Source of the DNA: an uncultured Gammaproteobacteria bacterium
Lineage (GTDB): Bacteria > Patescibacteriota > Microgenomatia > JALYQM01
Length of the DNA: 54,910 nucleotides
Direction of reading: 5' to 3'
Assembly (NCBI GenBank): GCA_964525495.1
Contig: CAZGHS010000009.1
Coordinates: 1-54,910 of the forward strand
The notes beneath the pieces are model-generated. The model was not told the DNA's origin. It saw nothing but the letters and a program-made list of their open reading frames with translations, and made no database searches. Position numbers and translations under genes: made by a program. Shown here piece after piece: positions 10,737 through 26,596 of this stretch. Within the stretch, counting starts at the first letter, position 1; every line of letters begins with the position of its first letter.

Positions 10737-10755
10737 ACACTAGTGTTGATTGGTG

Positions 10756-10832: not shown

Positions 10833-10901
10833 ATGGCTAAAGGCGAAAACCGAGATAAAAGTAATAAGAATAAAAAGAAACCAAAAAAAGATAAGAAGTA
10901 A
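10833..10901 (+). CDS. 22-aa Lys-rich micro-ORF (MAKGENRDKSNKNKKKPKKDKK)
   Basis: It falls below the ORF-track cutoff. AGGAGG lies 5 nt upstream of the ATG, and the ORF has its own terminator downstream. Confidence 0.35.
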   Translation: MAKGENRDKSNKNKKKPKKDKK

Positions 10902-10922
10902 TTGTGTTTTTGGTTAATTTAT

Positions 10923-10960
10923 AGCAGGCTTATACGCAAAGTATGAGTCTGCTTTTTTTG
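10923..10960 (+). terminator. Rho-independent terminator
   Basis: AGCAGGCTTATAC (10923-10935) pairs with GTATGAGTCTGCT (10941-10953), including two G-U pairs. TTTTTTT follows. Confidence 0.5.
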
Positions 10961-11000
10961 TAAAAAATATGCTTTAGGGTGTGTTATATTATTTACGAAT

Positions 11001-12320
11001 ATGAATGATGATCTAAAATGTCCATCGTGTGGAGAAACAATTCAAGTTACTCAAGCGTTAATGTCGCAGTTGTCGACACAGATTCGTGATGAGATGAAAG
11101 CGCAAGGAGATGCGGATAAAAAGAAATTTGAAATGTTGGTTGCAGAGAAAGAAAAGGAAACGGAGAAACTGAAGCAACTGATGGAAGATCAAACAAAATT
11201 GCAAAAAGAAAACTTAGAAAAAGAGAAGAAACGAATTGAAGAATCGCTGGTTGATCAGATGCAACAACAGATGGCGTTGACTGAGAGTGAGATAAAGAAA
11301 AAGATCACCGAGGAAAATAACTTGCAGCAAAAAGATTTGATGAATCGATTGGCGGAGCGCGAAGAGAAATTGAAAAAGAATGACGATATGCTTTTGGAGA
11401 TGATGAAGCAGTTGCGGGAGAAGGATGAGCGGGAGCGGGAATTGCGTTTGGATATGGAGAAGCGTTTGGGTGATGAAATTAAAATCACGTATTCTAAAGT
11501 GCAAAAGCAGATGTCTGAACAGTACGACATGCAATTGAAGGAGCGAGATAAATTGAACGATGATCTGCGAAAGAAGATTGAAGAATTGCAGATGAAAGCC
11601 TCTGAAGCATCGGTACAGATACGGGGAGAGATCGCGGAATTAGAACTTGAAGCGTTGCTGCGTGAACTGTTCCCGATGGATATGATCGAGCCAATTGGAA
11701 AGGGTAAATTCGGCGCTGATATTGCGCAGAAAGTGCGTGATCAATATGGTCGGGTCTGTGGAGTAATCTTATGGGAATCGAAGCATACAAAGAACTGGAT
11801 GCAAGAATGGCTGCCGAAGTTGCGTGAAGATTTGAGAACTTATAAAGCGCATGTTGCGGTACTCGCGACTCTGACTATGCCGGATGGGTTTGATACCTTT
11901 GGCATGAAAGATGGCGTGTGGATTACTAACTATGAGTGTTTGGCTGGTCTTGCTACTGCACTTCGTCATCAATTGATTTATGTTGCGTATGAGCGAAATG
12001 CTGCGAGTGGTAAGGGTGAAAAAATGGAAATGCTCTACAATTATTTGATTGGTCACGAGTTTAAACAGAAGATTGAAGCTATAGTAGAAGTGTTTACGAC
12101 TATGCGTGAGGACTTGGAAAAAGAGAAAAACGTAATGGAACGTGTATGGAAGAAACGGGAGATGCAGCTTACTCGTTTGGCTGTGAATACCTCGCGTATG
12201 TATGGAGAGATGCAAGGTTTGGTCGGGTCTGCATTACCAACCGTTTCAGGATTAGAACTCGAAGCGCTTGATTCTGGTGAGAAAAAAGAAGCAAATAGTT
12301 TACTTGATTTAATGGGATGA
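11001..12320 (+). CDS. DUF2130-like protein (N-terminal CxxC knuckle, long coiled coil, C-terminal globular nuclease-like domain)
   Basis: 439 aa. The N-terminus has LKCPSCGETIQV, followed by ~200 aa of Glu/Lys coiled coil and a C-terminal domain (GADIAQKV...ILWESKHTKNW...). The family assignment is from memory of its architecture. Confidence 0.65.
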   Translation: MNDDLKCPSCGETIQVTQALMSQLSTQIRDEMKAQGDADKKKFEMLVAEKEKETEKLKQLMEDQTKLQKENLEKEKKRIEESLVDQMQQQMALTESEIKKKITEENNLQQKDLMNRLAEREEKLKKNDDMLLEMMKQLREKDERERELRLDMEKRLGDEIKITYSKVQKQMSEQYDMQLKERDKLNDDLRKKIEELQMKASEASVQIRGEIAELELEALLRELFPMDMIEPIGKGKFGADIAQKVRDQYGRVCGVILWESKHTKNWMQEWLPKLREDLRTYKAHVAVLATLTMPDGFDTFGMKDGVWITNYECLAGLATALRHQLIYVAYERNAASGKGEKMEMLYNYLIGHEFKQKIEAIVEVFTTMREDLEKEKNVMERVWKKREMQLTRLAVNTSRMYGEMQGLVGSALPTVSGLELEALDSGEKKEANSLLDLMG

Positions 12321-12527
12321 TTATTCGCTTAAGAGTTTTTTAGCTCTAGTTATAAGTCTTCTTGTAGTCCATTTGCAAGGCTCGGACGTGCGTAATCGTG
12401 TAAAGAGGATGCCTGCTTCGGCTGTTTCATTTACGTTATGAGCAGCTTTAGCACTTAACTCTTTTTGGCCGACTTTGTTTATGAGTTCCTTCAATTGCTG
12501 AGGAGTAAGTTCTTGTGACTTACGCAT
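12321..12527 (-). CDS. hypothetical small protein (68 aa)
   Basis: The ORF starts 2 nt after the stop of the upstream minus-strand ORF. I see no recognisable motif. Confidence 0.4.
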   Translation of the reverse strand: MRKSQELTPQQLKELINKVGQKELSAKAAHNVNETAEAGILFTRLRTSEPCKWTTRRLITRAKKLLSE

Positions 12528-12529
12528 AA

Positions 12530-13117
12530 CTATTTACCTGAAAGTTTTTTTGGCGACACTCGTACTTTTACGATAAGATCTCTCTGATTGCCTTCATGAT
12601 CGTCGATTTCTTTGACGTGCATTGTTTCGTAGTACTCGAGTAACATATCTGAAAGTGATTGTTCTTGGTCTTTGAGCATTTCTCGAGATTCGTCAAATTT
12701 TCCTTGTAGTGTACGCGCTTCTTGAGTACCCATTATAGTTGCTTTGACTTGCTTTTTTACTTTCATGGCTTCTTTCGCGACTTTATCTGCTTTGTAGTAC
12801 TCTTCACTGTTTGCCATGATGTCTTTGAGTTGTTGTCCAAGCTCTGACATTTCAAGTTGTGATTTTTCAATAATGCCGAGTCTTTGTCGGATGACATTTT
12901 CTAATGCAGAAAGTGCGAAGGCTGTACTTTCAGGATTTTCCATGCTGAGTGACTCTTCGTCATCGTCGAATTTTCCTTTTAGTGCTGGTTCACTATCTGT
13001 GAAGGATGTTGCGGGAACAGCCATCATGTGTGAGTCTTCTTTTGTTTCGATTGGAGTATCAGTAATATTTTCTTCGGTTGGTTTTAGGTTTGGATCATCA
13101 GGCAGATTTGTATTCAT
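12530..13117 (-). CDS. hypothetical acidic coiled-coil protein (195 aa)
   Basis: It has an acidic N-terminal tail, a central heptad-like region and a short beta-rich C-terminus. It faintly recalls phage Gp157/Gam-like coiled-coil proteins, but this is unverified. Confidence 0.45.
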   Translation of the reverse strand: MNTNLPDDPNLKPTEENITDTPIETKEDSHMMAVPATSFTDSEPALKGKFDDDEESLSMENPESTAFALSALENVIRQRLGIIEKSQLEMSELGQQLKDIMANSEEYYKADKVAKEAMKVKKQVKATIMGTQEARTLQGKFDESREMLKDQEQSLSDMLLEYYETMHVKEIDDHEGNQRDLIVKVRVSPKKLSGK

Positions 13118-13161
13118 ACTTTGGTATACTAATTGAGATTTTTATAATTGTCAAACTTTTT

Positions 13162-13896
13162 ATGATATTGGCTTGGAAAAAAAGATATCAGACATGTCTA
13201 GAAATGCTGGAGCAGCTGCGAGTAGAAAAATCGGAGTTGCGTGACGCAAAGTTGAGCTACAACGGAATACTCGACCCGATGGCTGAAGGTGTTGTGCCCG
13301 TGCTAGTTGGGGACGAAGAGAATAAAAATAGAGATGCGTTTACGGGATCTGAGAAAGAATATGAAGTGGGGGTTTTAGTGGGTGTATCGACAGATAGTGG
13401 AGACTTGTTGGGGATTATTAAAAACTTTTCTGATATTAGTGTGAGAAGTGATGTGATTGTAGAGGCGGTAATGACTAGTGAATTGGAATTTGAACAGACA
13501 GTGCCGATGCATTCAAATCGTAAAGTACAGGGAAAGCGCTTGTGGTGGTGGATATTGAACGGAGTGCATATTCCAGAAGAAGAGCGACCAAAGAACAAAG
13601 TGAAGATTTTGGAGAGAGAATTTTTGGGGGAAGAGGTTATGCTGCTAGATGATTTGATGAAGGAGATTACAGTGATGCGTGAGAAGTTTGGCGAGCGATT
13701 TCGAATGCAACAAGCCGGGGAGAGTTGGAAAAGGTATTTTGAGAAGAGTAGTGCCGAAAAGTATGTTGTTGTGAAATTTCGATTGAAAGTGTCGAGTGGA
13801 TTTTATGTGAGGACGTTTGTGGAGGCTATCTCAAAGATTGTGGGAGTTCCGTTGCTTGTATTGACGTTAAAGCGGTCAAAGGTACACTATATATAG
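13162..13896 (+). CDS. truB: tRNA pseudouridine synthase B-like (compact, no obvious PUA domain)
   Basis: The start is trimmed to Met29 to remove the overlap with the divergent gene. The catalytic motif is NGILDPMAEGVVPVLVG (GxLDPxAxG with the catalytic Asp). KEYEVGVLVGVSTDSGD matches TruB motif II. Confidence 0.6.
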   Translation: MILAWKKRYQTCLEMLEQLRVEKSELRDAKLSYNGILDPMAEGVVPVLVGDEENKNRDAFTGSEKEYEVGVLVGVSTDSGDLLGIIKNFSDISVRSDVIVEAVMTSELEFEQTVPMHSNRKVQGKRLWWWILNGVHIPEEERPKNKVKILEREFLGEEVMLLDDLMKEITVMREKFGERFRMQQAGESWKRYFEKSSAEKYVVVKFRLKVSSGFYVRTFVEAISKIVGVPLLVLTLKRSKVHYI

Positions 13897-13900
13897 TCGT

Positions 13901-14035
13901 ATGGTCAGTCTTTCATTTCCTATTTGGGTATATATTGCTTTCTTCTTTGCAATAATTCTGTTTTTAATACTCCTGTTTTTTCTGGTTTTTAATCTCCTTA
14001 AGTTTCTAACCCTTGCTAAACATAAAGCTAAATAA
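13901..14035 (+). CDS. 44-aa hydrophobic micro-ORF, doubtful
   Basis: The sequence MVSLSFPIWVYIAFFFAIILFLILLFFLVFNLLKFLTLAKHKAK forms a single TM-like helix. There is no SD, and it fills the truB-epmA gap. Confidence 0.2.
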   Translation: MVSLSFPIWVYIAFFFAIILFLILLFFLVFNLLKFLTLAKHKAK

Positions 14036-14073
14036 TTCTAATGTGATAATATGCTTGTTAAATAGGGGTAAAT

Positions 14074-15129
14074 ATGAAGCCGACATGGCAAAAATTGCGA
14101 GACAATCCAGAATTAATGAAAAGTTATCTTGCTCGAGAGAAGGTAATAGATGCTATTCGTGCGTATTTTAAATCGTCTGGGTTTTTGGAAGTTGAAACTC
14201 CCTTGATGGTGAAGATGCCTGGGATGGAGCCTTATTTGGAAGTGTTTGAGAGTGAATTGTTGGACGCTCCAGGAGATAAACATAGAACTTTTTTGATTAC
14301 TTCACCAGAGTATGCAATGAAGAAATTGTTGGTGGTTGGGTTGCCTAAAATCTTTCAGATCTGTAAGTGTTTTCGTAATGGTGAGGATTTACGGAGTTCA
14401 ACTCACAATCCGGAATTTACAATGATTGAATGGTATCGGATTGAGTCGAATTATACTGATTTGATGCGCGATTGCGAAGAGATGGTTTGCTCGATTTATG
14501 ATGCGGTTGTTGGCGATAGGATAGACGGGAAACGAGTTTTGAAGTATCAGGGGCAGGAAGTATCGGTTGATGGACCGTGGGAACGAATCTCTGTGGCTCA
14601 AGCATTTGAAAAGTATGCAGGAGTAAACGAGGATTGGTTGCAGAATAGTGAAGAGATGAAGCGAGTCGCTATTGAAAAAGGATATTCCGTTGATGACGAT
14701 ACAACTTGGGAACAAGTGTTTCATCAGATATTTTTGAATGAAGTAGAGCCACATCTTGGATATGGTAAGCCCACTATATTATATGACTATCCTGCATCTA
14801 TGGCTGCGTTATCGCGTAAAAAGCCTGGAGATGACAGATATGCTGAGAGGTTTGAGTTTTATATTTTGGGTAAGGAATTGGGAAATGGATTCTCGGAGCT
14901 GACTGATGCGGTGGAGCAAGATGATCGATTGCGAGCAGAGTGGCAAGAGCGTAAAGATTTAGGTAAGAAAATGTATGATGTGGATGAGGATTTTATTAAT
15001 GCGCTGAAGGTAGGAATGCCGGAGGCTGCGGGGATTGCAGTAGGGATTGATAGGTTGATAATGCTGTTTGCGAACGTGTCTACGATTCAGGAGACTTTGT
15101 GGTTTCCAGCGAATGAATCATTTTTCTAA
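14074..15129 (+). CDS. epmA: elongation factor P--(R)-beta-lysine ligase (truncated class II LysRS paralog, PoxA/GenX)
   Basis: 351 aa. It matches E. coli EpmA blocks: FLEVETP, ITSPEYAMKKLLV, FQICKCFRNGE, HNPEFTMIEWY, ERFEFY..G.ELGNGFSELTD and ALKVGMPEAAGIAVGIDRL. It sits immediately upstream of efp. Confidence 0.85.
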   Translation: MKPTWQKLRDNPELMKSYLAREKVIDAIRAYFKSSGFLEVETPLMVKMPGMEPYLEVFESELLDAPGDKHRTFLITSPEYAMKKLLVVGLPKIFQICKCFRNGEDLRSSTHNPEFTMIEWYRIESNYTDLMRDCEEMVCSIYDAVVGDRIDGKRVLKYQGQEVSVDGPWERISVAQAFEKYAGVNEDWLQNSEEMKRVAIEKGYSVDDDTTWEQVFHQIFLNEVEPHLGYGKPTILYDYPASMAALSRKKPGDDRYAERFEFYILGKELGNGFSELTDAVEQDDRLRAEWQERKDLGKKMYDVDEDFINALKVGMPEAAGIAVGIDRLIMLFANVSTIQETLWFPANESFF

Positions 15130-15130
15130 A

Positions 15131-15159
15131 TTGCGCTCATTGAGCTATTTGTATATAAT
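15131..15159 (+). promoter_or_regulatory. candidate promoter for efp
   Basis: TTGCGC (15131-15136), a 17-nt spacer, then TATAAT (15154-15159). Confidence 0.35.
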
Positions 15160-15193
15160 CCCTTTCAGTTACAGTTTAGATACGGGTATTTTT

Positions 15194-15763
15194 ATGGCAG
15201 TAATTGCAGTTTCAGAACTCAAAAAAGGTTTATATATTGTTTTTAAGGACGAGCCTAATCAGGTGAGTGCTATGGATTTCGTGAATCCAGGTAAGGGCTC
15301 GGCTTTTTATCGCGTAAAGTTAAAAAGTTTAAAGACTGGTCGTGTGGTAGAAAACACGTTTAAATCTGGTGAAATGGTTGAAGATTATCCAGTGGATACT
15401 CGTGAAATGCAATTTTTATACAAAGATAATGACAATGGGTATTTCATGAACCCGTTTACATATGAGCAGATTAGCATGCTTTTGGATTTGGTCGGTGATT
15501 TTGCTCAGTTTTTGCAGGATGGTCAGACATATCAGGTGCTGATGCACGGTGATGATGCTATCGGTATGCGACCACCAAAGCGAGTTGTATTTAAAATAGC
15601 CTCAACTGAGAAGACTGCAGCAGGCAATACTGCTGGTCGTGTGTTGAAGCCAGCTACGCTCGAAAATGGCGTAGAAGTCCAAGTCCCTGCCTTTATTAAA
15701 GAAGGCGATAAAGTGGCTCTGAATCCTGAATCAGGTGAGTATTTGGAGCGGGTAAACGACTAG
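15194..15763 (+). CDS. efp: elongation factor P
   Basis: The start is trimmed to MAVIAVSELKKG. The modification loop VNPGKGSAFYRVKLK is conserved, including the Lys. The 189-aa length is typical. Confidence 0.92.
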   Translation: MAVIAVSELKKGLYIVFKDEPNQVSAMDFVNPGKGSAFYRVKLKSLKTGRVVENTFKSGEMVEDYPVDTREMQFLYKDNDNGYFMNPFTYEQISMLLDLVGDFAQFLQDGQTYQVLMHGDDAIGMRPPKRVVFKIASTEKTAAGNTAGRVLKPATLENGVEVQVPAFIKEGDKVALNPESGEYLERVND

Positions 15764-15873
15764 AATTGAGTTGGTTTTAGTTAGGTCTTGTTGGTTTATC
15801 CCTTATTGGTGCCAATATCTGTAGTATGTGTCTAGGTAGGCCTATAATATAGACGGTTTCCCTCAGTATATAA

Positions 15874-15902
15874 TTGACTCTAAGCTTATAGTGTGCTATA
15901 AT
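15874..15902 (+). promoter_or_regulatory. strong sigma70-like promoter with extended -10
   Basis: TTGACT (15874-15879), a 17-nt spacer, then TGc-TATAAT (TATAAT at 15897-15902). It lies ~80 nt upstream of the 1390-aa ORF. Confidence 0.5.
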
Positions 15903-15981
15903 CCACCAATCTTGCGTACAGTTTAACCGACTGTAGGCTCGTTTTTTATACTACAATATAGTCTTCCTGCCCAGGAAAGCG

Positions 15982-18900
15982 ATGTGTATGCGACGCACAG
16001 CATTTTTTGGGGCAGTAGCCTTCATTCTTACTTCATTATTTCTGACTAATGTGCCAGCAGTTTTTGCTGCACCACCTGCAAACTTTCAGTCAACCTTAGT
16101 TGCGGGAAGTGGTTTGAACGGTCCTTCAGCTTTCGAGTTCGCTCCTGACGGTCGTATTTTTATACTTGAGCGTGCTGGTAAGGTAAAGATATATAAGAAT
16201 GGTCAGGTTTTAGCCACACCATTCGTTGATCTTCCTTCTGCAGCTTCAGGCGATCGTGGTTTGATCGGTATCGCTTTTGACCCTGATTTTAATACTAATC
16301 ACTACGTTTATTTTTGGTACACCTCTTCAGGTGATTTCATGAATAGACTCGTTCGTTTTACTGCTACTGGCGATGTTGCTACAGATGGTCCAGTGCAGAT
16401 TTACCAGACAGCGCTTCCTTCTCAAGAACTTCACGTTGGTGGAGGTTTGGCGTTTGGTTCTGATGGAAAGATCTATATAGGTATTGGGGACAACGGTTAT
16501 TCAGCCAATGCGCAGAATATGGCTGTGCCTTTTGGAAAAATGATGAGAATTAATAAGGACGGCACGATCCCAGCTGATAATCCTTATGTAGGCCAAGCTA
16601 ATGTGTTGCCAGAAATATGGGCACATGGACTCCGTAATCCATGGAGAGCTCAGTTTGATTCCGTTACGGGACGACTCTATGTTTCTGACGTTGGAGATAA
16701 TAGTTGGGAAGAAGTAAACATGATTAGCCGTGCGGGGAATTACGGATGGCCTACAGTTGAGGGCATGTGTACCGTCAATTGCGGCAATTTTATAGATCCA
16801 GTTCATACATACTTTCATGATGACGTGAGTTCTGCTGTTACAGGTGGACCTGTGTATCGTGGTGACATGTTTCCCGAGTCATATCAAGGACGTTATTTCT
16901 TTGCAGATTATGCTCGTGGATTTATTAAGAGTCTGAGTTTAAATGCAGCTGGTACTGTTGGTACACCTTCAGATTTTGATTTGAGTGCAGGTAGCGTTGT
17001 TGATTTGAAGGAAGCCTATGATGGCTCTATTTATTACATAACATACTATCCAGGTCGTTTGTATCGTATCAGCTATTCAGAAGGTAATACTATTCCGGTT
17101 GCGAATGCTGGTGCTGATAAAACAAAAGGTGTTGAGCCGCTTACGGTTAACTTCACAAGTGCAGGTAGCTTTGATCCTGATGGTAGTCCGTTAACCTTTA
17201 ATTGGAACTTTGGTGATGGCACAACATCTACTGCTGCCAATCCTATAAAAACATTTACTGTTAAGGGTGCCTATACGGTTACTTTGCATGTAAGCGATGG
17301 AGATAATATAGCTGAAGCTGTTCCTTTAGTTATTCAAGTTGGTTTACCTCCGACAGTTCGTATTGCTGCTCCTGAGAATAATTCTTTGTGGAGAATGGGC
17401 GATACTATTTTCTATACTGCTTCAGGTATAGATGGTGCTGGCTTTGACTTGCATGATTCAGATTTTACGACTGAAGTTTTGTTCCATCATGATACACACA
17501 CTCATCCATTCCTCGGACCAATCCAGAGTAAAACAGGTACATTCGCTATTCCTCTCAGCGGAGAGCATGATCCAGATGTTTGGTTTGAGATCATGATTAC
17601 AGCTCACGACACTAATGGGCTGTCTACAACTGAACGCGTAAATATTTATCCAGTTAAGTCTTTGTATAAAGTTCAGACGAACATTGCTGGTATGAACATC
17701 AATATTGACGGAGTTCCGACTGCGGCTCCTTATGAGTCACTTGGTGTTGTGAACTATCAGCGTGAGCTAGAAGCTCCAATGTTCCAGACAGTAGCTGGTA
17801 AGTTGTATCAGTTTGAAAGTTGGTCAGATGGCGGCGCTGCGAAGCACATGGTTTCCGTGCCGGAAAATAATGTTACGTGGACAGCTACCTATCAAGAAGT
17901 CCCAGCCTTTACAGGACAGTATTTCAATAATATGAACTTGCAGGGAGCACCTGTGCTTACCCGCCAGGATCCATCAATTGATTTTGAATGGAATGCAGGT
18001 TCACCAGCTCCCGTAGTTAATGTAAATAATTTCTCAGCACGCTGGACACGTACTCAGATCTTTGGCGGTGGTACCTACACATTTACTACTACAACTGATG
18101 ACGGCGTACGTTTGTATATCGACGACGTGATGATTATGGATAACTGGCAAGATCAGGGAATGTTCCCGGCTGACAGTGTGACTGTGGATATTGCTGCAGG
18201 TGAACATGAGATTGTTATGGAATACTATGACAATCAGTTTGACGCAATTGCAAAGCTTACCTGGTCATTTGTTCCAGGCGAACCTACACCAACTCCGACA
18301 CCTACAACGGGTGGATATAATGCAGCGTTTTGGAATACTCCAACAGCAGGTAGCGCTCCAGCTATCCCTGTTACAGCTCCAGACGTAACTCGTGTTGATA
18401 CTGCTATCGACTATGATTGGGGAGATGTTTCACCAATTGCTCCAATCGCTAAGGATCACTACGTAGTGCGCTGGACAAAGGCGGTGACTTTACAAGAAGG
18501 TTTGTATAAGTTTACTACTGAATCTGATGATGGTATCCGCGTGTATGTTGATAACCTTCCGTTGATTGATCAATGGAATGATCATGGTGTGACTACACAT
18601 ACTGCTGAAAAAATATTAACAGCAGGTGTACATGATATTCGCGTTGAGTATTATGAAAATGGTTGGGACGCAGTTGCTAAATTTAAGTACGACTTTATGG
18701 GTGCTGCTACTCCAATCCCAACAGTTACACCGACTTTGGCTCCAACTGCTGTGCCTACTGCGACTGCTAGTGCTACCCCGGTAGCTTCAGCGAGTGCAAC
18801 ACCAGTTGCGACTGCATCAGCAACTCCTACTCCAGGTGCTGGTTCGGTGATCACCGTGTATGCAGCAGGCATACCAGCCTTAGGAGTATATCCAAACATG

Positions 18901-20154
18901 AATTTGTTAATCAACGATGTGGTAGTTGCTACATTTACTAATGTAGACGGCAATGGCAATATCCCTACTTACAAGCCGTATACTTATACACACGCTTCTG
19001 CTGTTACTGGTGCTCAAGTAAAAGTCCTGTTTACTAATGATGCATATGCAGGGGATGACAACGATCGTAATCTGCGTGTTGACCGTATAACAATTGATGG
19101 TGTGACATATCAGTCTGAGGACGTACGTGTTTACTCAACAGGAGCTGATCCAGGACCAGGATGCGCACCAGGATATCAGGTAACAGAGTGGCTTAATTGT
19201 AATGGATATTTCCAGTACTTTAATCAGGCAGTACCAACAGCTACCCCTGTAGCTACAGCAACGCCTATCGCTACAGCCAGTGCTACACCTGTAGGAACAG
19301 CTACACCAATTCCAACTGGAACACCAGTTTCAACAAACTATTTTGCGGAATACTGGAATAACAAAACACTAACAGGTCCTGCAGCTTTGACACGAAATGA
19401 AACCACAATTGATCATGACTGGGGAATGGGTTCGCCAGATACAATCGTACCGGTTGATAACTTTTCAGCTCGTTGGACTAAAACCGCAAATCTTCCTTCA
19501 GGTATCTATCGATTTACCGTGACTGGGGACGATGGTGTCCGTTTGTTTGTAGATGAAGTTAAGGTAATAGATAAGTGGATTGATCAAGGACGAACAACAT
19601 ATACAGTCGATCTTCCATTACAAACAGGTAATCATGCGATCAGATTTGAGTATTTTGAAACAGGATATACCGCTGTTGCTAAGATGAGCTATACAAAGAC
19701 AGCTGAACTTCCAGTTGGACCTACACCAACTGCAGTCCCAACTCCTACAGCAACACCATTTGATGGATATGTAGCTCAATACTGGAATACACCAGGTGTT
19801 GGTAGCGCTCCAGCTATGCCAGCCGGTGCTCCGACTCTTACGCGAAATGAAGCAAAAATTGATAACTACTGGGGCGCAGGTTCACCAGACGCGTCAATCA
19901 GTGTAGATAAGTTTATTGCACGATGGACACGAACTACTACATTCGCAGCTGGAACATATCAGTTCTGGACTGAGTCTGACGACGGTATCCGAGTTTATAT
20001 TGATGATGAATTGGTAATCAATCAGTGGAACGATCATGGTGTAACAGCCTTTACTGGAAATAAAACATTAACAGCAGGTGCGCATACTATCCGTGTTGAA
20101 TATTACGAAGGCGGATGGGATGCAGTAGCTAAATTTAATTGGACACAGTTATAA
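15982..20154 (+). CDS. secreted multidomain protein: PQQ-type sugar (glucose/sorbosone) dehydrogenase beta-propeller + PKD + 4x PA14 + CBM-like module
   Basis: 1390 aa with a signal peptide ending VFA/AP. The SGDH-like propeller carries GLIGIAFDPDF, HVGGGLAFG.DGKIYIGIGDNG, HGLRNPWR and NYGWP. The PKD domain has PLTVNFTSAGSFDPDG...WNFGDG. Four PA14 repeats each contain FSARW/VVRW/IARWT...DDG(V/I)R(L/V)(Y/F)(I/V)D. PT/ASATPVA linkers separate the domains. Confidence 0.85.
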   Translation: MCMRRTAFFGAVAFILTSLFLTNVPAVFAAPPANFQSTLVAGSGLNGPSAFEFAPDGRIFILERAGKVKIYKNGQVLATPFVDLPSAASGDRGLIGIAFDPDFNTNHYVYFWYTSSGDFMNRLVRFTATGDVATDGPVQIYQTALPSQELHVGGGLAFGSDGKIYIGIGDNGYSANAQNMAVPFGKMMRINKDGTIPADNPYVGQANVLPEIWAHGLRNPWRAQFDSVTGRLYVSDVGDNSWEEVNMISRAGNYGWPTVEGMCTVNCGNFIDPVHTYFHDDVSSAVTGGPVYRGDMFPESYQGRYFFADYARGFIKSLSLNAAGTVGTPSDFDLSAGSVVDLKEAYDGSIYYITYYPGRLYRISYSEGNTIPVANAGADKTKGVEPLTVNFTSAGSFDPDGSPLTFNWNFGDGTTSTAANPIKTFTVKGAYTVTLHVSDGDNIAEAVPLVIQVGLPPTVRIAAPENNSLWRMGDTIFYTASGIDGAGFDLHDSDFTTEVLFHHDTHTHPFLGPIQSKTGTFAIPLSGEHDPDVWFEIMITAHDTNGLSTTERVNIYPVKSLYKVQTNIAGMNINIDGVPTAAPYESLGVVNYQRELEAPMFQTVAGKLYQFESWSDGGAAKHMVSVPENNVTWTATYQEVPAFTGQYFNNMNLQGAPVLTRQDPSIDFEWNAGSPAPVVNVNNFSARWTRTQIFGGGTYTFTTTTDDGVRLYIDDVMIMDNWQDQGMFPADSVTVDIAAGEHEIVMEYYDNQFDAIAKLTWSFVPGEPTPTPTPTTGGYNAAFWNTPTAGSAPAIPVTAPDVTRVDTAIDYDWGDVSPIAPIAKDHYVVRWTKAVTLQEGLYKFTTESDDGIRVYVDNLPLIDQWNDHGVTTHTAEKILTAGVHDIRVEYYENGWDAVAKFKYDFMGAATPIPTVTPTLAPTAVPTATASATPVASASATPVATASATPTPGAGSVITVYAAGIPALGVYPNMNLLINDVVVATFTNVDGNGNIPTYKPYTYTHASAVTGAQVKVLFTNDAYAGDDNDRNLRVDRITIDGVTYQSEDVRVYSTGADPGPGCAPGYQVTEWLNCNGYFQYFNQAVPTATPVATATPIATASATPVGTATPIPTGTPVSTNYFAEYWNNKTLTGPAALTRNETTIDHDWGMGSPDTIVPVDNFSARWTKTANLPSGIYRFTVTGDDGVRLFVDEVKVIDKWIDQGRTTYTVDLPLQTGNHAIRFEYFETGYTAVAKMSYTKTAELPVGPTPTAVPTPTATPFDGYVAQYWNTPGVGSAPAMPAGAPTLTRNEAKIDNYWGAGSPDASISVDKFIARWTRTTTFAAGTYQFWTESDDGIRVYIDDELVINQWNDHGVTAFTGNKTLTAGAHTIRVEYYEGGWDAVAKFNWTQL
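17908..20151 (+). repeat. four in-frame PA14-domain coding repeats
   Basis: Repeat units lie at about 17908-18270, 18316-18696, 19339-19698 and 19768-20151. They are separated by Pro/Thr linkers. A non-PA14 insert at about 18840-19140 carries the motif NDRNLRVDRITIDG. Confidence 0.8.
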
Positions 20155-20158
20155 AAAT

Positions 20159-22288
20159 ATGAAAAAAGTTGTTGTAGTTTTACCAACATATAACGAAAAA
20201 GAGAATATAGAGCGTATTCTTGATGCTATTCTGATGCAAGCAAATAAGCTTGTTGATATGTCCTTGCATGTGCTAGTTGTCGATGACAACTCACCAGATT
20301 GCACAGGCGCAATTGTTCGCACCTATATGCAATCTCATCCTCAGGTTTCGATCTTGGCTGGTCAAAAAGAAGGGCTTGGAAGAGCATATATTCGTGGATT
20401 CCAATATGCGATATCACAGATGAAAGCAGATGTCGTAATGGAGATGGATGCAGATTTTTCTCATAATCCACTCGATATTCCTCGCTTGCTTGCACCGATT
20501 CATGAAGGGTATACCTTTGTTATTGGTTCGCGTTGTGCAAAAGGTGGGTCAATTCCAAAAGATTGGCCTAAGCTTCGTATCTGGAACAGTGCTATTGCTA
20601 ACGGTTTAGCTCGTTTTGTTGCCGGTATGATCGCTGCTAAAGATTGTACCGGTGGATTCCGTGCGATCGACGCTTCGTTAGTATCCTCACTGTCTTTGGA
20701 TACTTTGAATGTAAAGGGATATGCATTTCAGATTAGCTTATTGCATGCAGCGCTTAAAAAAGGTGCTCGTGTATTTGAAGTCCCAATTCATTTTACTGAC
20801 CGACAGTTTGGGCAGTCAAAAATTCGTATTTCCGATATTACAGAGTTTGTAAAAACCGTATTTGCGCTCCGATTTAGCTTTTTGATGTCACGCGCATTCT
20901 ATTTCCGTGCTGCATTGGTATTGTTTGGCATAGCCTGTGTTGTTGCAACTTTTGGGCTTAGTTACTATTTATTTATTAATGCTGTGTTTTCTACTGTTAT
21001 AATCGTTGGTTTGTGTATTTTCTCACTTGTTATGACAGCTCATGGCCTGTTTACGCTATCTTGGATGTATTATGCCTGGGCTGATGGAAGTTATGCCGAA
21101 GAGCACAAATCCCCTCGAGTTTATTCTCCAGCATCATTTAGTTTTACGGCTCTTCTTCCAGCTCGGTTTGAAGAGAAAGTAATTTATGATACGGTGATGA
21201 GTGTTGCCAAAATAACCTATCCTGAAGACCTCAAAGAAACATTGGTTATTATTCGTGAAGACGACACTAAGACAATTGCAGAAGTTGAGCGAGCAATTCG
21301 TGACCTTGGTGGAAATAATGTTCGATTAGTTATATCTAATGATTATCCTATCAACAAGCCACATAGTTTGAATATTGGTCTTGCAGAGGCTAAAAACCAA
21401 GTTGTAGCAGTGTTTGATGCAGAGGATGAGCCTCATAAAGATATTTATAACATTATTAACACTGTTATGATCCGTGACAATGCTGATGTCGTACAGTCAG
21501 GAGTGCAGTTGATGAATTATCGATCAAATTGGTACTCAACGTTCAATGTATTGGAATACTTCTTCTGGTTTAAATCAGCACTTCACTTTTTTGCACGAAT
21601 CGGAATTATTCCGCTTGGTGGAAATACCGTGTTCTTTAAGAAGGGTCCTTTACAGAAAATTGGTGGATGGGACGAGCAATGTCTTACAGAGGATGCTGAT
21701 GTTGGTATACGTTTAAGTATTGCAGGGGCTAAAATCAGTATTGTGTATGATGAGGCTCATGTTACTCAGGAAGAGACTCCACCAACTCTTTTGTCTTTTG
21801 TGCACCAGAGAACTCGTTGGAATCAAGGATTCATCCAGATTTTCTTAAAGGGAGCCTGGAAGGGATTGCCTACATTGCGACATAAATTAATTGCGTTGTA
21901 TATTCTACTTGGTCCAGAGCTCCAGACTTTGATGTTCTTGAGTCTACCGTTTACGTTGTTTATGGTTTTCTTTATCAAGCTTCCTGTCTGGGTAGTGCTG
22001 CTCTCGTTCGTGCCATTTTACATTTTGATCTTGCAGCTTTTGACTTATAACATTGGTTTGTATTTCTTTACTCGCGATTATAAGTTGCGTTACCCATGGT
22101 GGATGAGTTTGGTCACTATAGTGACATATTATCCATTCCAGTTAGTACTTGGATTCAGCGCAGTGCGTGCTATTGGCCGTGTTATGCAAAAGAATTTGGC
22201 TTGGGAGAAAACAACACACGTTAATGCACATCGTATTCAATCAGTAGAAGTATCCTCTGTTGCAGCATATGCACTCGAGCAGGCTTAA
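20159..22288 (+). CDS. fusion: polyprenyl-phosphate hexose synthase-like GT2 (Ppm1/DPM1-like) + TM segments + processive beta-glycan-synthase-like GT2
   Basis: 709 aa. The N-terminal domain has VVLPTYNEKENI...VVDDNSPD...EMDADFSH...FRAID...QSKI. Four or more TM helices follow. The C-terminal domain carries D, DxD (FDAEDE), TED (LTEDADVG) and QxxRW (QRTRW) motifs, followed by further TM helices. Confidence 0.8.
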   Translation: MKKVVVVLPTYNEKENIERILDAILMQANKLVDMSLHVLVVDDNSPDCTGAIVRTYMQSHPQVSILAGQKEGLGRAYIRGFQYAISQMKADVVMEMDADFSHNPLDIPRLLAPIHEGYTFVIGSRCAKGGSIPKDWPKLRIWNSAIANGLARFVAGMIAAKDCTGGFRAIDASLVSSLSLDTLNVKGYAFQISLLHAALKKGARVFEVPIHFTDRQFGQSKIRISDITEFVKTVFALRFSFLMSRAFYFRAALVLFGIACVVATFGLSYYLFINAVFSTVIIVGLCIFSLVMTAHGLFTLSWMYYAWADGSYAEEHKSPRVYSPASFSFTALLPARFEEKVIYDTVMSVAKITYPEDLKETLVIIREDDTKTIAEVERAIRDLGGNNVRLVISNDYPINKPHSLNIGLAEAKNQVVAVFDAEDEPHKDIYNIINTVMIRDNADVVQSGVQLMNYRSNWYSTFNVLEYFFWFKSALHFFARIGIIPLGGNTVFFKKGPLQKIGGWDEQCLTEDADVGIRLSIAGAKISIVYDEAHVTQEETPPTLLSFVHQRTRWNQGFIQIFLKGAWKGLPTLRHKLIALYILLGPELQTLMFLSLPFTLFMVFFIKLPVWVVLLSFVPFYILILQLLTYNIGLYFFTRDYKLRYPWWMSLVTIVTYYPFQLVLGFSAVRAIGRVMQKNLAWEKTTHVNAHRIQSVEVSSVAAYALEQA

Positions 22289-22296
22289 GGAAGACT

Positions 22297-24939
22297 ATGA
22301 ATACTTTCAAATCTTTCTTATCCCGTATTAAAGTTGAGCACATACTTATTTTTGTGTTGCTTGAAATTTCTGCGATTGCTCATGGCTATAACATGTTTAA
22401 TTTTCCTTATTATGAAAATGATGAAGGAACGTATATGTCTCAAGCGTGGTCTGTAGTGACGCAAGGGGAGCTGGCGCCTTACACATACTGGTATGATCAT
22501 GCGCCGCTTGGATGGTTTTTCATTGGGTTATGGACATTGGTAACGGGCGGATTCTTTACTTTTGGTATGTCTGTCAATTCTGGTCGTGTGTTTATGCTTG
22601 TATTACAAGTTGTTTCTTCGTTTTTCTTGTATGCAATCACAAAGAAGGTGACTGGTAGTAAACTCGGTGGAATTATAGCCGTGTTGCTGTTTTCGCTTTC
22701 ACCATTGGCAATTTACTTTCATCGTCGTGTGTTGCTTGACAATATAATGGTGTTTTGGCTACTGGCTTCATTTTATGTATTGACTGTTAAAAGATTACGA
22801 ATTACGACGATTGTGTTTTCGGCTTTGTTATTTGGTATAGCTATATTAACTAAAGAGAGCGCAGTATTTTTTATTCCAGCGATGATTATGATATTAGTTG
22901 TTCAGCTGAAAGCTGAGCAGCGAATCTTCTCGATCGTACAGTGGGTTGCGATTGTTGCTTCAATTGTATCTGTGTATATCTTGTATGCAGTGCTTAAGGG
23001 TGAGTTCTTTGCAAGCGGTTCCTTGCTTGGTGGTTCGGGGCAGCATGTGAGTTTACTTGAGACCCTGAAGTTTCAAGCCGCGCGTGGTAATGGTGCCCCT
23101 TTATGGGATTTGGGACGGAATCAGTTTGTGCATGAAGTGACGCAATGGTTTAAGCAAGATGCGTTTTTGATCGTGTCTGGTGGGATAGCAGTAGTGAGCA
23201 TGATTTTTGTGAGCTTTAAAAAACGTCAGTATCTTCCTTTCGTAGTTGCTGCTTTAGGATATTTGTTTTATTTAGCGCGTGGTGGAAATATTATTGAGTT
23301 TTATGTATTGCCGCTTATTCCGATTATTGCGTTGTTAGTTGGTGGTGTGGTTTGTGAAGCTTCTCGTTTAGTTTTGAGTTTGCTTTCTTTAAAAAGTAAC
23401 TCATTTAAACTGCAGTATGCGATGTATGGTATCACGACACTCGCGATGGTTGTAGGAATTTCCTATTATTATGCTAATTTTGGCATGATGAATCGTGGAC
23501 ACAATATTTATACTGCAAATCAAACTAAAGCTCAGATAGAAGCAGTTGCGTGGATTCGTGAGCATGTGAATCCGGAAACAGTGTTTACCTTTGATAACTA
23601 TGCACATATTGATTTGAAATCAACTCAAAATCCAAGTGGAGTATATTTTCCTCAAGCACAGTGGTACTTAAAAGTGGATTCAGATCCTGAAGTTAGATAC
23701 GATGCGCTTGGAGGAACTGCAGCATCGATATCCATGATCGCCATGACTCCTCAGACGCATTATGATATCGAGCATAATGAATTAAACTTTCTTAAGAGTG
23801 CAGCTGATCAGTCAGACAAGGTTAAAGTGTTTTGGAGTGAGGGATGGGGTGTCGAGATTTGGGAAACAAAATTTCCTGCACATTTAATGGCTCGGTCGTG
23901 GGATAGCTATAAAAAATCATTTATCACACAAGACGGTCGAACTATAGATCTAGAACATAGCTACGAGACATCATCTGAGATGCAAGCGTATTCTATGTTG
24001 CGTGCAGTGTGGATTGATGATAAAGAAACGTTCGATTTGCTTTGGTCATGGAGTGAGAAGAACTTACAAAAGGAGAATAAGTTGTTTGCAGGGCTTTGGG
24101 GAGAGTTGCAAAATGGAGAGTGGGGTGTAGAGGCAACTGCATCTCGTAGTAGTGCAGATGTAGATTCTGCATTGGCTTTGATTTTGGCTTCAACTAAGTG
24201 GAACGATGCTTCATATTTGGAGGATTCAAAGCAGATTGTTCAAGCGATACGAACTCATGAAATAGCATCAGGAAAATATGTATTGGCTGGAGATGCACAG
24301 TCACAGAAAGATATCGTAGTGCATGTTCCTTCATTATCACCTTATGCGTATCGAGCTTTTGCCAGTGTTGATACAGGATATGATTGGAATGGGGTTCTAA
24401 CTACTACTTACGATATGCTTGCAGGCTGTAGTTCTCTTTCTAGTGTCTATATTTCTCCAGAATGGTGTAGTGTAGACACCAAGACTAAGTTGGCATATAG
24501 AGAGGCTCAGGGCGATAATTCAGGTAGAATTGTACGCTCAAGTCAAATCCCTTGGAAGCTAGCGCTTGATTATGTATGGAGTAAAGATGCTCGTGCTTTG
24601 GAATACTTGAAAAAAGGATCATTTTATAAAGATGAGTATTCTCGTTCTGGGAAAGTTTTTACCGAGTACTCGTTGAGTGGTAAGCCTACTTCGAACTGGG
24701 AATCTGTCGCTGGATATGCAGGAGCTTTAGGTTCTCTTTCGGTGGCTGATAAATCACAATTAGATAAGCTGTATACCAATAAGATTTTGACTTCGTACTA
24801 TTATGACGATCCAGGATATGTGTATTGGGAAGATCCAGATAATGTATCGGTACAGAATTGGGGTTGGCTTATGGTAGGTCTTTACGATAATAAGCTGTTT
24901 CAGCCTACTTTTGCTGCGCAAACAGCTTCAGCACAATAA
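22297..24939 (+). CDS. fusion: GT-C (PMT/ArnT, GT39-like) membrane glycosyltransferase + C-terminal glycoside hydrolase family 8-like domain
   Basis: 880 aa. The N-terminal ~400 aa are polytopic, with YENDEGTYMSQAW in the first loop (a DE motif). The C-terminal part has GH8-like blocks (TSSEMQAYSMLRAV, SSADVDSALALILAST, SPEW). The GH8 call rests on motif recall. Confidence 0.65.
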   Translation: MNTFKSFLSRIKVEHILIFVLLEISAIAHGYNMFNFPYYENDEGTYMSQAWSVVTQGELAPYTYWYDHAPLGWFFIGLWTLVTGGFFTFGMSVNSGRVFMLVLQVVSSFFLYAITKKVTGSKLGGIIAVLLFSLSPLAIYFHRRVLLDNIMVFWLLASFYVLTVKRLRITTIVFSALLFGIAILTKESAVFFIPAMIMILVVQLKAEQRIFSIVQWVAIVASIVSVYILYAVLKGEFFASGSLLGGSGQHVSLLETLKFQAARGNGAPLWDLGRNQFVHEVTQWFKQDAFLIVSGGIAVVSMIFVSFKKRQYLPFVVAALGYLFYLARGGNIIEFYVLPLIPIIALLVGGVVCEASRLVLSLLSLKSNSFKLQYAMYGITTLAMVVGISYYYANFGMMNRGHNIYTANQTKAQIEAVAWIREHVNPETVFTFDNYAHIDLKSTQNPSGVYFPQAQWYLKVDSDPEVRYDALGGTAASISMIAMTPQTHYDIEHNELNFLKSAADQSDKVKVFWSEGWGVEIWETKFPAHLMARSWDSYKKSFITQDGRTIDLEHSYETSSEMQAYSMLRAVWIDDKETFDLLWSWSEKNLQKENKLFAGLWGELQNGEWGVEATASRSSADVDSALALILASTKWNDASYLEDSKQIVQAIRTHEIASGKYVLAGDAQSQKDIVVHVPSLSPYAYRAFASVDTGYDWNGVLTTTYDMLAGCSSLSSVYISPEWCSVDTKTKLAYREAQGDNSGRIVRSSQIPWKLALDYVWSKDARALEYLKKGSFYKDEYSRSGKVFTEYSLSGKPTSNWESVAGYAGALGSLSVADKSQLDKLYTNKILTSYYYDDPGYVYWEDPDNVSVQNWGWLMVGLYDNKLFQPTFAAQTASAQ

Positions 24940-25042
24940 TCCTACTTTATATCTGTAGTAATTAAAAAATACCTCAGTTCTTGACATCAATAGGGCGTTT
25001 ATACTATCTTTAATGTGTATTATTACTATAAAGTAATGTGTT

Positions 25043-26209
25043 ATGGATTATGTTACGCGTGAGCAATGGAATTTAATTTTTGCTCATACTTCTGAAGCAA
25101 TTTTTTTTGTTAACGAGAATGAGCTTGTTGAATCAATGAATCCGGCCGCTGAACAGTTGGTAGGGTTTACTCAGAACGAAGCATTAGGGAAATCTATTTA
25201 TGAGATTATTCGAATTGATCCCAAAAGCGATGCTTCGTTGTATCAGTTTTTGTCATTAAGAGCAGAGAATTCTGAGCTTAAACCAGGTTATCTTGAGTTT
25301 CAAATTATACAAAAAAATGGCGAACATGTATGGATTAGCTGTTCGTTTACGCGCATTTCCGACGAGTCTGAAGAGAAAATTGCAATATTTGCTCGCAATA
25401 TTAGTGAAGCAAAGAAAGCGGAACAGATGCGTTCAGATTTTATTTCGATTGCTTCTCATGAACTGCGTACTCCGCTGACAGTTATTGCCGGTTATTTATC
25501 TTTATTGATGGCAGGTAAGGTAGGTAAGCTGGCTGATAAGCAGGCCAATTTTGTGAAACAGATTTATGAAGACACGCAGAGCCTGTCCAGCTTGGTTGAG
25601 GATTTGTTGGATGTATCACGTTTGGATAGCGGGAAATTTCGTCTTCATAAAACACCACTGTCATTGTCAGATATAGTTCTTAAAACGGTCGAAAGCTTGA
25701 ATGACAAAGCACTGGAGAGAAACATTATAATTGTGTATACTATACACAAGAATTTGCCTATGATTCATGGCGATAAAGCTAAACTGCGCCAGGTGATAAC
25801 TAATATTATAGATAACGCTATTAAATATACGAATCCGGGTGGTAAAATACGAGTAGAGCTTCGAACTGATCGGAACTCATTTCTCTTGACTGTCACCGAT
25901 TCTGGTTACGGCATTGAGAAAAAAGATCTTCCGCATATTTTTGAGAGGTTCTATCGAGCTGAGAATAAGTTACTTGACCGGGTTACGGGTGCTGGGTTAG
26001 GATTGTATATTAGTAAAACAATAATTGAGATGCACGAGGGGGGAATAGGTGTGGATAGTGCTATTGAGAAGGGGACAACGTTTACTATATCTTTGCCACG
26101 CGATCATGTTTTTGAGGAAGGGCATGTGGTAGAGAGGCAAGAAAAAGGACCTAACGCTCTTCAACAATTTTTGTCACAGTTTTTACATGGTAGACGTCGA
26201 AAGGATTAA
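25043..26209 (+). CDS. cytoplasmic PAS-domain sensor histidine kinase
   Basis: 388 aa with no TM segment. It contains a PAS region, an H-box (SIASHELRTPLT), an N-box (DNAIKYT), and G1/G2 boxes (DSGYGI, GAGLGL). Confidence 0.85.
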   Translation: MDYVTREQWNLIFAHTSEAIFFVNENELVESMNPAAEQLVGFTQNEALGKSIYEIIRIDPKSDASLYQFLSLRAENSELKPGYLEFQIIQKNGEHVWISCSFTRISDESEEKIAIFARNISEAKKAEQMRSDFISIASHELRTPLTVIAGYLSLLMAGKVGKLADKQANFVKQIYEDTQSLSSLVEDLLDVSRLDSGKFRLHKTPLSLSDIVLKTVESLNDKALERNIIIVYTIHKNLPMIHGDKAKLRQVITNIIDNAIKYTNPGGKIRVELRTDRNSFLLTVTDSGYGIEKKDLPHIFERFYRAENKLLDRVTGAGLGLYISKTIIEMHEGGIGVDSAIEKGTTFTISLPRDHVFEEGHVVERQEKGPNALQQFLSQFLHGRRRKD

Positions 26210-26212
26210 CAT

Positions 26213-26596
26213 ATGAGCGATGATAAAGTAAAAGTTTTATTAGTAGAGGATGATCCACGCGTTCGTCAGCTCTATGAACTTGTACTTACCATGGAAGAAT
26301 ATGAAGTGGTATGTGCAGTTAATGGTGAAGAAGGTCTGCAGAAAGCAGAAGAGGAGTCTCCGGATCTTATTTTCTTGGATTTGCGTATTCCGAAGATAAG
26401 TGGCTTGGATTTGTTGCAAATGTTGCGAAATAATCCAAAAACTAAGGATATTCCGGTTGTAATCTTATCTAATTATGATGATGAGGCGACCATCGCAAAG
26501 GGTATTGAGCTTGGTGCTCGAGAGTACATTATTAAGTCACGTATTACTCCTAAAGACCTCCCAACAAAGGTTGAAGAGTATACGCATCATGAGTAA
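26213..26596 (+). CDS. single-domain response regulator (CheY-like receiver only)
   Basis: 127 aa with VLLVEDD, the phospho-acceptor context LIFLDLRIP, and a conserved ILSN...K. There is no output domain. The start lies 3 nt after the kinase stop. Confidence 0.85.
   Translation: MSDDKVKVLLVEDDPRVRQLYELVLTMEEYEVVCAVNGEEGLQKAEEESPDLIFLDLRIPKISGLDLLQMLRNNPKTKDIPVVILSNYDDEATIAKGIELGAREYIIKSRITPKDLPTKVEEYTHHE

Follow-up and report, generated by a model that had tools for sequence, protein, structure and literature searches.

The 54,910-nucleotide contig CAZGHS010000009.1 (assembly GCA_964525495.1), from an uncultured bacterium with the GTDB lineage Patescibacteriota, Microgenomatia, JALYQM01, carries on its forward strand three adjacent genes that encode a putative surface-glycan assembly module. 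We refer to this whole stretch of DNA as the window. The three open reading frames (ORFs) are co-directional and are named P1 (15982-20154, 1390 residues), P2 (20159-22288, 709 residues) and P3 (22297-24939, 880 residues), with gaps of 4 nt between P1 and P2 and 8 nt between P2 and P3. A sigma-70-type promoter at 15874-15902 of the same strand (TTGACT, a 17-nt spacer and TATAAT, with an extended -10 TG at -14/-15) lies in the intergenic region after the elongation factor P (EF-P) gene, 80 nt from the first ATG. This site is the sole match to TTGACW-N16-18-TATAAT in 54.9 kb, where 0.09 are expected, and it was the top promoter-like site (11/12) in a regional scan. The ORF coordinates and the promoter scan therefore agree with the original prediction, made from the sequence alone, of a strong promoter followed by three tightly spaced genes. 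The regional scan revealed no terminator-like sites at the P1/P2 or P2/P3 junction, and a Shine-Dalgarno sequence, AGGAAG, is found just before P3, overlapping the P2 stop codon. The operon leader (15903-15981, + strand) contains a hairpin at 15914-15937 followed by a U6 run; its RNA fold has an energy of -22.5 kcal/mol and a weak minimum free energy z-score of -2.1, and the hairpin and U6 run could be an attenuator or could have arisen by chance. Since no metatranscriptomes contained the sequence (share 0.00), the evidence for co-transcription consists of the promoter, the short gaps and the lack of terminators. The DNA sequencing runs that carry the sequence are from wastewater and freshwater.

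P2 joins two family 2 glycosyltransferases (GT2) in one polypeptide. Pfam identified Glycos_transf_2 at residues 6-175 and Glyco_tranf_2_3/Glyco_trans_2_3 at residues 329-623. AlphaFold2 (AF2) models of P2 and P3 were built on 52-sequence alignments, and that of P2 had a predicted local distance difference test score (pLDDT) of 89.9 and a predicted template-modelling score (pTM) of 0.62. The N-terminal domain (residues 1-235; 20159-20863, + strand) is a GT2 domain of GT-A fold resembling the DPM1/GtrB-like polyprenyl-phosphate hexose synthases. It matched the Pyrococcus dolichyl-phosphate mannose synthase PfDPMS (PDB 5mlz) with an E-value of 1.3e-28 as a single sequence and 7.8e-49 as a profile, and Foldseek superposed it on the same structure with a root-mean-square deviation (rmsd) of 2.3 and 34% identity; ArnC and GtrB were matched as well. 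The D97-A-D99 sequence (DxD) is conserved among homologues and, together with the membrane helices and the homology to solved members, places the domain among the DPM1/Ppm1/GtrB/ArnC enzymes. The closest relatives of the domain use GDP-mannose, and its NCBIfam matches all fell below the cut-offs. A transmembrane (TM) hairpin (residues 245-308; 20891-21082, + strand), modelled by AF2 as helices 245-273 and 275-308, separates the two catalytic domains, both of which are predicted from the model to be cytoplasmic.

The C-terminal domain of P2 (residues 329-700; 21143-22258, + strand) is a membrane-embedded GT2 of the class that contains BcsA, the hyaluronan synthases (HAS) and PgaC. Its motifs D368/D369, D420-A-E-D423, T510-E-D512 and Q550-R-T-R-W554, which are invariant or nearly so in the 52 homologues, make up the D, DxD, (T)ED, Q(R/Q)xRW signature of the processive membrane GT2 class, and a W682-E-K-T-x-H loop near the C-terminus, at the place of the gating loop, is invariant. 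Foldseek returned BcsA (4p00 and 5ej1) as the top hits, with 442 columns aligned to 4p00 at an rmsd of 5.7, and also matched hyaluronan synthases; BcsA was likewise the best solved-synthase profile match (1.8e-14). The Pfam, 5mlz and 4p00 matches thus bear out the original description of P2 as a Ppm1/DPM1-like synthase fused to a second GT2 with the signature of the processive synthases, and give the latter a BcsA/HAS-like fold. Cellulose is not supported as the product; the best NCBIfam match of the domain was PgaC/IcaA (TIGR03937), at 98 bits and 5.9e-28 far below the cut-off of 422 bits. The other NCBIfam matches, the XrtP-associated GT and CelA among them, were all far below their cut-offs. 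The predicted lack of BcsB/BcsC-type partners held, as a scan of 43 window ORFs revealed no BcsB, BcsC or PilZ domain and neither BcsB nor BcsC was found among the called genes of related loci; P2 itself has no PilZ domain. Some double-GT2 homologues of 902 residues (P0233, P0234 and P0237) also contain FHA-type domains (PF00498, PF16697), suggesting that these lineages regulate the protein in a phospho-dependent manner.

P3 consists of a GT-C transferase part followed by a fold of glycoside hydrolase family 8 (GH8). Its AF2 model had a pLDDT of 89.9, mostly above 90 in the GT-C part, and a pTM of 0.86. The GT-C part (residues 1-525; 22297-23871, + strand) is of the PMT_2 type, with Pfam matches to PMT_2 at residues 67-226 (41 bits, gathering score 26.1) and to PMT (26.7 bits versus 22.7). 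From the model helices and the positive-inside pattern we predict approximately 11 TM helices with an N-in/C-out topology and, after them, a small alpha/beta domain. The loop that follows TM1 contains the sequence Y-E-N-D42-E43, in which D42 and E43 are shared by 51 of the 52 homologues; D67, H68, R97, R143, D148, K186 and E187 are conserved in all 52. The multi-span profile match and the conserved acidic first-loop motif are features of the GT-C families. A fold search returned only the AglB oligosaccharyltransferase for this part, and weakly (TMq 0.35); GH8 matches dominate the search with the full model.

The GH8 domain of P3 (residues 529-867; 23881-24897, + strand) has the (alpha/alpha)6 fold. 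Pfam detected Glyco_hydro_8 at residues 534-766 with 112 bits, Foldseek gave TM-scores of 0.76-0.81, normalized to the target, against BcsZ and CelA, and the family profile matched CelA (1cem) at 2.7e-45; the fusion of a GT-C to a GH8-like domain was correctly predicted. Given the C-out topology, the GH8 domain would lie outside the cell, as would loop 1 of the GT-C in the model. The catalytic columns were mapped by profile alignment to CelA 1cem, in which E95 is the acid, D278 the base (D243 of BcsZ) and D152 the third residue. At these columns the window GH8 has E561, R747 and S619, respectively; the acid is kept, and the base and the D152 equivalent are lost. Among 75 related GH8 domains, 43 have the E-D-D set (L030 and L002, for example), 11 have N at the base column and approximately 18 have lost one or more of the residues, a group that includes the window copy and that of its relative L010 (72% identity). 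Because both the D152 and D278 equivalents are replaced, the window GH8 probably does not act as a canonical inverting hydrolase, and the "trimming hydrolase" originally assigned to it is not supported for the window. Its residues suggest instead that it is probably a glycan-binding module, for which there is a precedent in a three-component system where the C-terminal carbohydrate-binding module (CBM) of a GT-C binds glycan (PMC11127046).

Neither fusion is confined to the window. P3 had 974 matches, at least 120 of them full-length GT-C::GH8 proteins of 38-49% identity, and P2 had at least 120 full-length double-GT2 homologues of 43-72% identity; a scan with one genome per species returned at least 581 relatives. 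The P3 homologues, from Woesebacteria, Pacebacteria and the Patescibacteria group, are named only "glycosyl hydrolase family 8". The idea of a unique arrangement was therefore rejected, and what had been called an unusual one is not so in Patescibacteria.

To describe the gene content of related loci, hidden Markov models were built for the four parts and used to scan all fetched loci, which held 96 non-redundant GT-C genes; 87 loci had enough upstream DNA to serve as denominator for the upstream genes. A synthase-type GT2 was present in 84/87 GT-C loci and lay directly upstream of the GT-C in 72/87, often with overlapping stop and start codons. GH8 was fused to the GT-C in 58/96 and a separate neighboring gene in 15/96 (fused or adjacent in 73/96), and was absent from the remaining 23/96. 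The DPM1-like GT2 was fused to the synthase in 19/87 loci and separate within the locus in 23/87, and so was fused or nearby in 42/87. A GtrA-like domain, detected by jackhmmer seeded from L094, was present in 31/96, either as a standalone protein, fused to the DPM1-like gene, or between both GT2 domains (L011).

The module occurs in many classes of Patescibacteria and in Chloroflexota, Dormibacterota and Actinomycetota. Cultured carriers, with unfused clusters, include Frigoribacterium, Curtobacterium, Microbacterium, Plantibacter, Arthrobacter and environmental Mycobacterium species. In cultured Microbacteriaceae, Arthrobacter and the environmental Mycobacterium species the unfused order is GT2, GT-C, (x), GH8, DPM1-like, and the separate-gene arrangement was confirmed by Pfam in L078 and L080; the P2 and P3 orthologues of L080 (Frigoribacterium) lie at 6394-7908 and 7905-9899. 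Searching from the P2 side revealed further fusions followed by GT-C::GH8 in 3/3 cases. As the flanks vary between loci, it is the linkage that is conserved and not the wider neighborhood. The module core is thus a membrane GT2 synthase plus a GT-C. P2 and P3 represent a condensed version of this wider module, which in Actinomycetota is spread over separate genes. That the adjacency holds across three phyla supports a functional link between P2 and P3, and natural fusions are Rosetta-stone evidence for proteins working together. The co-localization of all three genes that had been proposed stands for the P2-P3 type of pairing; a P1-like gene is present only in close relatives.

Several related loci have additional genes. 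Tandem GT-C::GH8 duplicates lie behind a single synthase gene in three patescibacterial loci (L028, 4972-10637; L029, 5344-10655; L054, 4736-10301), and in L026 the fusion is followed by an extra GH8 protein of 721 residues (10582-12747). In L093 (Magasanikbacteria) the module is followed by a GH113 gene (10904-12562), a mannanase family, and in L004 by a chitin-synthase-like GT2 and a polysaccharide deacetylase (10535-13378). These differing accessory genes are a hint that not all lineages may make the same polymer.

The first gene of the operon, P1, encodes a secreted multidomain protein. After a signal peptide (15982-16068), all on the + strand, Pfam identified a GSDH propeller (residues 46-361, 208 bits; 16117-17064), a PKD domain (residues 369-445; 17086-17316), two PA14 domains (17902-18291 and 18376-18702), CBM60 (residues 957-1052, 69 bits; 18850-19137) and two further PA14 domains (19342-19698 and 19822-20145). 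Every part of the originally proposed fusion was recovered, with the CBM-like insert assigned to CBM60, and the PA14 units are also visible as direct repeats in the DNA. The propeller matched the sugar dehydrogenase 2ism, which depends on pyrroloquinoline quinone (PQQ), with an E-value of 2e-34. H151 and R218-N219 align with the conserved HxGG and HRNP motifs of 2ism, and by analogy with the soluble glucose dehydrogenases we take them to be the catalytic histidine and the PQQ-binding RN pair. P1 thereby combines the features of the GSDH family (PF07995), a six-bladed propeller profile, the catalytic His and the RN motif. No pqq genes were seen within the window, and no search was made beyond it. 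P1 also carries long linkers rich in Pro, Thr and Ala. Over P1 (16001-20000) the GC skew drops to 0.10 and then to 0.009, compared with 0.19-0.29 in the flanks, and the GC content rises to 0.43-0.45 from approximately 0.40; this shift may come from the PA14 repeats and the linkers rich in Pro and Thr, or from a separate origin of the gene.

A P1-like GSDH-PKD-PA14 gene precedes the P2-P3 pair in close relatives only, where the synteny from EF-P to the downstream histidine kinase and response regulator genes is also kept. Most related loci are without anything P1-like, and P1 was rejected as a core component for this reason; it is a lineage-specific accessory. GSDH-domain proteins nevertheless adjoin the module in five independent lineages, that of the window and four distant ones, and none were found elsewhere in approximately 1.3 Mb of fetched flanks. 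The distant examples are a GSDH-PKD-DUF5648 protein in L044 (Pacebacteria), a GSDH protein of 367 residues in L083 (Mycobacterium sp.) and two giant secreted proteins whose genes overlap the GT-C stop codon. One of the latter, in L076 (Actinomycetota, 9467-16747), is a GSDH-PKD-Ig-legume-lectin protein of 2426 residues; the other, in L064 (Dehalococcoidia, 9377-14950), has the order PA14-Big_5-Malectin-GSDH-Kelch, with galactose-oxidase-type repeats. The prediction that a glycan-binding oxidoreductase is a neighbor of the module therefore stands in so far as such proteins recur, although P1 itself is conserved there only among close relatives. In four of the five GSDH-adjacent lineages GH8 is absent or is without a catalytic residue, a small number that provides only a lead.

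We propose that P2 and P3 are a conserved module for assembling surface glycan in bacteria that have no outer membrane, condensed here into two polypeptides, in which the GT-C decorates a synthase-made beta-glycan outside the cell; we hold this reading with moderate confidence. The C-terminal GT2 of P2 would polymerize a beta-linked hexosan from nucleotide sugar at the cytoplasmic face and thread the polymer through the membrane, like BcsA, HAS and PgaC, and the N-terminal domain would load polyprenyl phosphate with a hexose (mannose or glucose). A GtrA-like flippase, encoded elsewhere in the genome if at all, would flip this lipid-sugar, which the GT-C of P3 would use at the outer face as donor to glycosylate the emerging polymer or its acceptor. 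The GH8 domain would hold the glycan and in most relatives would also cut it, while the window copy probably binds only. P1, presumably co-transcribed from the strong promoter, would act on the same glycan as an accessory PQQ-type sugar dehydrogenase with lectin-like modules. GtrB, GtrA and a GT-C constitute a three-component set for extracytoplasmic glycan decoration (PMC11127046, PMC13390465), and the DPM1-like, GtrA-like and GT-C proteins of related loci together make up that full set. Since the PgaC/IcaA match is far below its cut-off, the sugar could be N-acetylglucosamine, glucose or mannose. GH8 is nearest to endoglucanases and the lipid-sugar domain to mannose enzymes, and the synthase motif variants are not diagnostic.

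Several observations weigh against this proposal. The synthase part of P2 has only approximately 4-5 TM helices in the AF2 model, so a complete channel is not demonstrated, and GT2 enzymes bearing QxxRW are not all processive. The window GH8 is without two canonical catalytic residues, jackhmmer found no GtrA-like ORF of at least 80 residues in the window, and 45/87 loci have no DPM1-like gene in their flanks, which means that the lipid-sugar link in cis does not extend to every locus. 

The proposal can be taken further, to a point that we consider rather unlikely. The synthase GT2 and the GT-C may constitute one undescribed trans-membrane machine, in which the GT-C replaces BcsB or PgaD as obligatory partner at the channel exit and either grafts lipid-donated sugars onto the chain or ligates a polyprenyl-phosphate-primed chain en bloc to the wall; GH8 or, where it has decayed, the GSDH-lectin oxidoreductases would finish the chain. 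Such a machine would represent a fifth major architecture of synthase-dependent glycan secretion, common to Patescibacteria, Chloroflexota and Actinomycetota, and its product would possibly be a major envelope polymer of the candidate phyla radiation (CPR).

The short synthase part is also the starting point for a different explanation, that the GT-C serves mainly as a structural partner, taking the place of BcsB, PgaD or IcaD beside a minimal synthase; it would stabilize or complete the translocation path and present GH8 at the exit, its transferase activity being secondary or lost. The synthase domain, with its 4-5 or so TM helices, ends right after the W-E-K-T loop, no BcsB is found among the scanned window ORFs, and PgaC, IcaA and similarly small synthases depend on a membrane partner. 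The overlapping stop and start codons further suggest a stoichiometric complex. However, D42/E43 of the GT-C catalytic loop and the seven other conserved residues named above are invariant or nearly so among the 52 homologues, which argues for retained catalysis, and DPM1-like and GtrA-like genes recur in the loci. We regard a mainly structural GT-C as unlikely.

Alternatively, the polyprenyl-phosphate hexose made by the DPM1-like domain could be the primer for the fused synthase. A lipid-linked chain would then cross the membrane and be ligated by the GT-C to the wall, a protein or a lipid, with GH8 setting its length. The presence of both cytoplasmic GT2 sites on one polypeptide, with the TM hairpin between them, would favor channeling of this kind, the coupling between the GT-C and synthase genes is strict, and synthases are generally accompanied by hydrolases (PMC7710045, PMC9040799). 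Yet the GtrA-like flippase of 31/96 loci better fits the flipping of a small lipid-sugar, and the DPM1-like gene lies beside the synthase in fewer than half of the loci. Moreover, BcsA-class synthases work without a lipid primer, and we know of no GT-C that transfers a polymer from polyprenyl monophosphate. Lipid-primed synthesis is, in our judgment, distinctly unlikely.

The operon could also serve two functions, the DPM1-like domain and the GT-C being a protein O-glycosylation pair of the Ppm1/Pmt type that acts, for example, on the Pro/Thr linkers of P1, and the second GT2 and GH8 serving an unrelated glycan. The PMT and PMT_2 profiles describe protein mannosyltransferases, the P2 N-terminal domain has PfDPMS as its nearest relative of solved structure, and P/T/A-rich linkers like those of P1 are O-glycosylated in Actinobacteria. 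Against such a division, the tightest and most universal linkage of the GT-C is to the synthase-type GT2 and not to the DPM1-like gene, the GT-C is covalently fused to a glycan-active GH8 fold in 58/96 cases, and most loci have no P1-like protein; we find it very unlikely. That three unrelated genes are mere neighbors in a compact genome is hardly credible and, for P2 and P3, already contradicted: patescibacterial genomes are gene-dense with short intergenic gaps and P1 is absent from most related loci, but the P2-P3 type of pairing recurs in 84/87 loci of three or more phyla with unrelated flanks, and several independent fusion states exist.

The best-supported reading is thus that of a decorated synthase-made glycan, a module that joins synthase-dependent secretion to three-component extracytoplasmic glycosylation, a combination that we did not find described. 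Our literature search returned no description of a GT2, GT-C and GH8 module or of the fusions, and so the impression that the arrangement is undescribed holds within that search, even though the fusions themselves are common in Patescibacteria. A report on Actinoplanes clusters (PMC13390465) was considered as a prior description and rejected, as it concerns unrelated Wzy-type and GtrA systems. The module looks like a widespread surface-polysaccharide pathway that is unannotated beyond generic names. Patescibacteria (CPR) account for much of bacterial diversity, are hard to culture and have envelope polymers that are almost unknown, and few other multi-enzyme envelope systems are common to them and to cultured bacteria. 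As unfused orthologous clusters occur in cultured Actinomycetota, the pathway is testable genetically and biochemically now. If our model is true, its product would be the first synthase-dependent polysaccharide decorated on the outside by the polyprenyl-phosphate-sugar/GT-C route.

The operon is flanked by housekeeping genes. Upstream are those for TruB, an EpmA-like enzyme and EF-P, and downstream those for a PAS histidine kinase, a response regulator, HrcA, GrpE, DnaK and DnaJ. The EpmA/PoxA-like gene, a class II aminoacyl-tRNA-synthetase paralogue of 351 residues, lies directly upstream of EF-P, within 14074-15763, and the two genes suggest a pair for the modification of EF-P. As listed, the ORF of EF-P begins at a TTG codon within the preceding gene, and the true start probably lies later. 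The PAS histidine kinase and a single-domain response regulator are encoded at 25043-26596, with a promoter-like site of their own at 24981-25010; the pair is syntenic in close relatives and not in distant ones, except for a similar pair near the L004 module. 

A second, separate glycan cluster occupies 37765-51202 of the + strand. It contains four GT4 genes (37765, 38960, 47899 and 50057), two GT2 genes (40691 and 49161), a hexapeptide acyltransferase (40092), a weakly Wzy_C-like membrane protein (41675), another PMT_2 GT-C (46271-47929) and two large ORFs without a Pfam match (43316 and 44743). The third GT-C-type gene of the window (3994-5106, - strand) matches the PIG-V mannosyltransferase and PMT_2 profiles, and a polyprenyl synthetase is encoded at 53619-54722.

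Comparison with known systems places the module between several of them. With the Bcs system (BcsA-BcsB-BcsZ-BcsC) it shares a membrane GT2 with D, DxD, TED and QxxRW motifs, for which BcsA is the top structure and profile match, and an accompanying GH8 whose closest structures are BcsZ and CelA. It differs in having no PilZ/cyclic di-GMP input, BcsB or BcsC, and a much shorter synthase part, in that its partner is a GT-C fused to GH8, and in the attached polyprenyl-phosphate hexose synthase. PgaCD and IcaAD provide the best NCBIfam match and a synthase of similar size (approximately 400 residues) that needs a membrane partner. However, the match of 98 bits compares with a cut-off of 422 bits, the module has a large GT-C where PgaCD and IcaAD have a small two-TM partner, and no deacetylase is encoded in the window, whereas L004 has one. 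In the clostridial Ccs system, CcsZ belongs to GH5 and the locus has a BcsB-like partner. CcsABZ (PMC7710045), from a Gram-positive bacterium, is like the module a synthase-dependent locus that includes its own glycoside hydrolase, but has neither a GT-C nor a lipid-sugar arm.

The three-component systems (GtrB/GtrA/GtrC, CsbB/YfhO, ArnC/ArnT, Ppm1/Pmt and the GT136 system of PMC11127046) likewise pair a GT-A polyprenyl-phosphate-sugar synthase with a GT-C, and the GtrA-like protein of 31/96 related loci is a further likeness. The ORF12 GT-C of PMC11127046 also has a C-terminal glycan-recognizing domain, which in the module is a GH8 fold and not a CBM. Those systems decorate Wzy, ABC or teichoic-acid polymers, whereas the module is tied to a synthase-type GT2, and the window has no flippase gene. 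A close parallel exists in Streptomyces, where the GT2 synthase CslA, which has neither BcsB nor BcsC as a partner, acts together with an oxidase outside the cell, GlxA, and a glucanase of GH6, CslZ (PMC11022532, PMC9040799). This CslA-GlxA-CslZ(-LpmP) system operates without a GT-C or polyprenyl-phosphate-sugar synthase, its oxidoreductase is a copper radical oxidase in place of the PQQ-type GSDH, and its glycanase is of GH6 rather than GH8 (PMC9040799). What it has in common with the module is the combination, in bacteria without an outer membrane, of a cellulose-synthase-like GT2, an extracellular oxidoreductase and a beta-1,4-glycanase fold, and the giant protein of L064 even carries galactose-oxidase-type Kelch repeats beside its GSDH domain. 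If our model is true, the module would be the second independent pairing of a synthase with an extracellular oxidoreductase, after CslA-GlxA.

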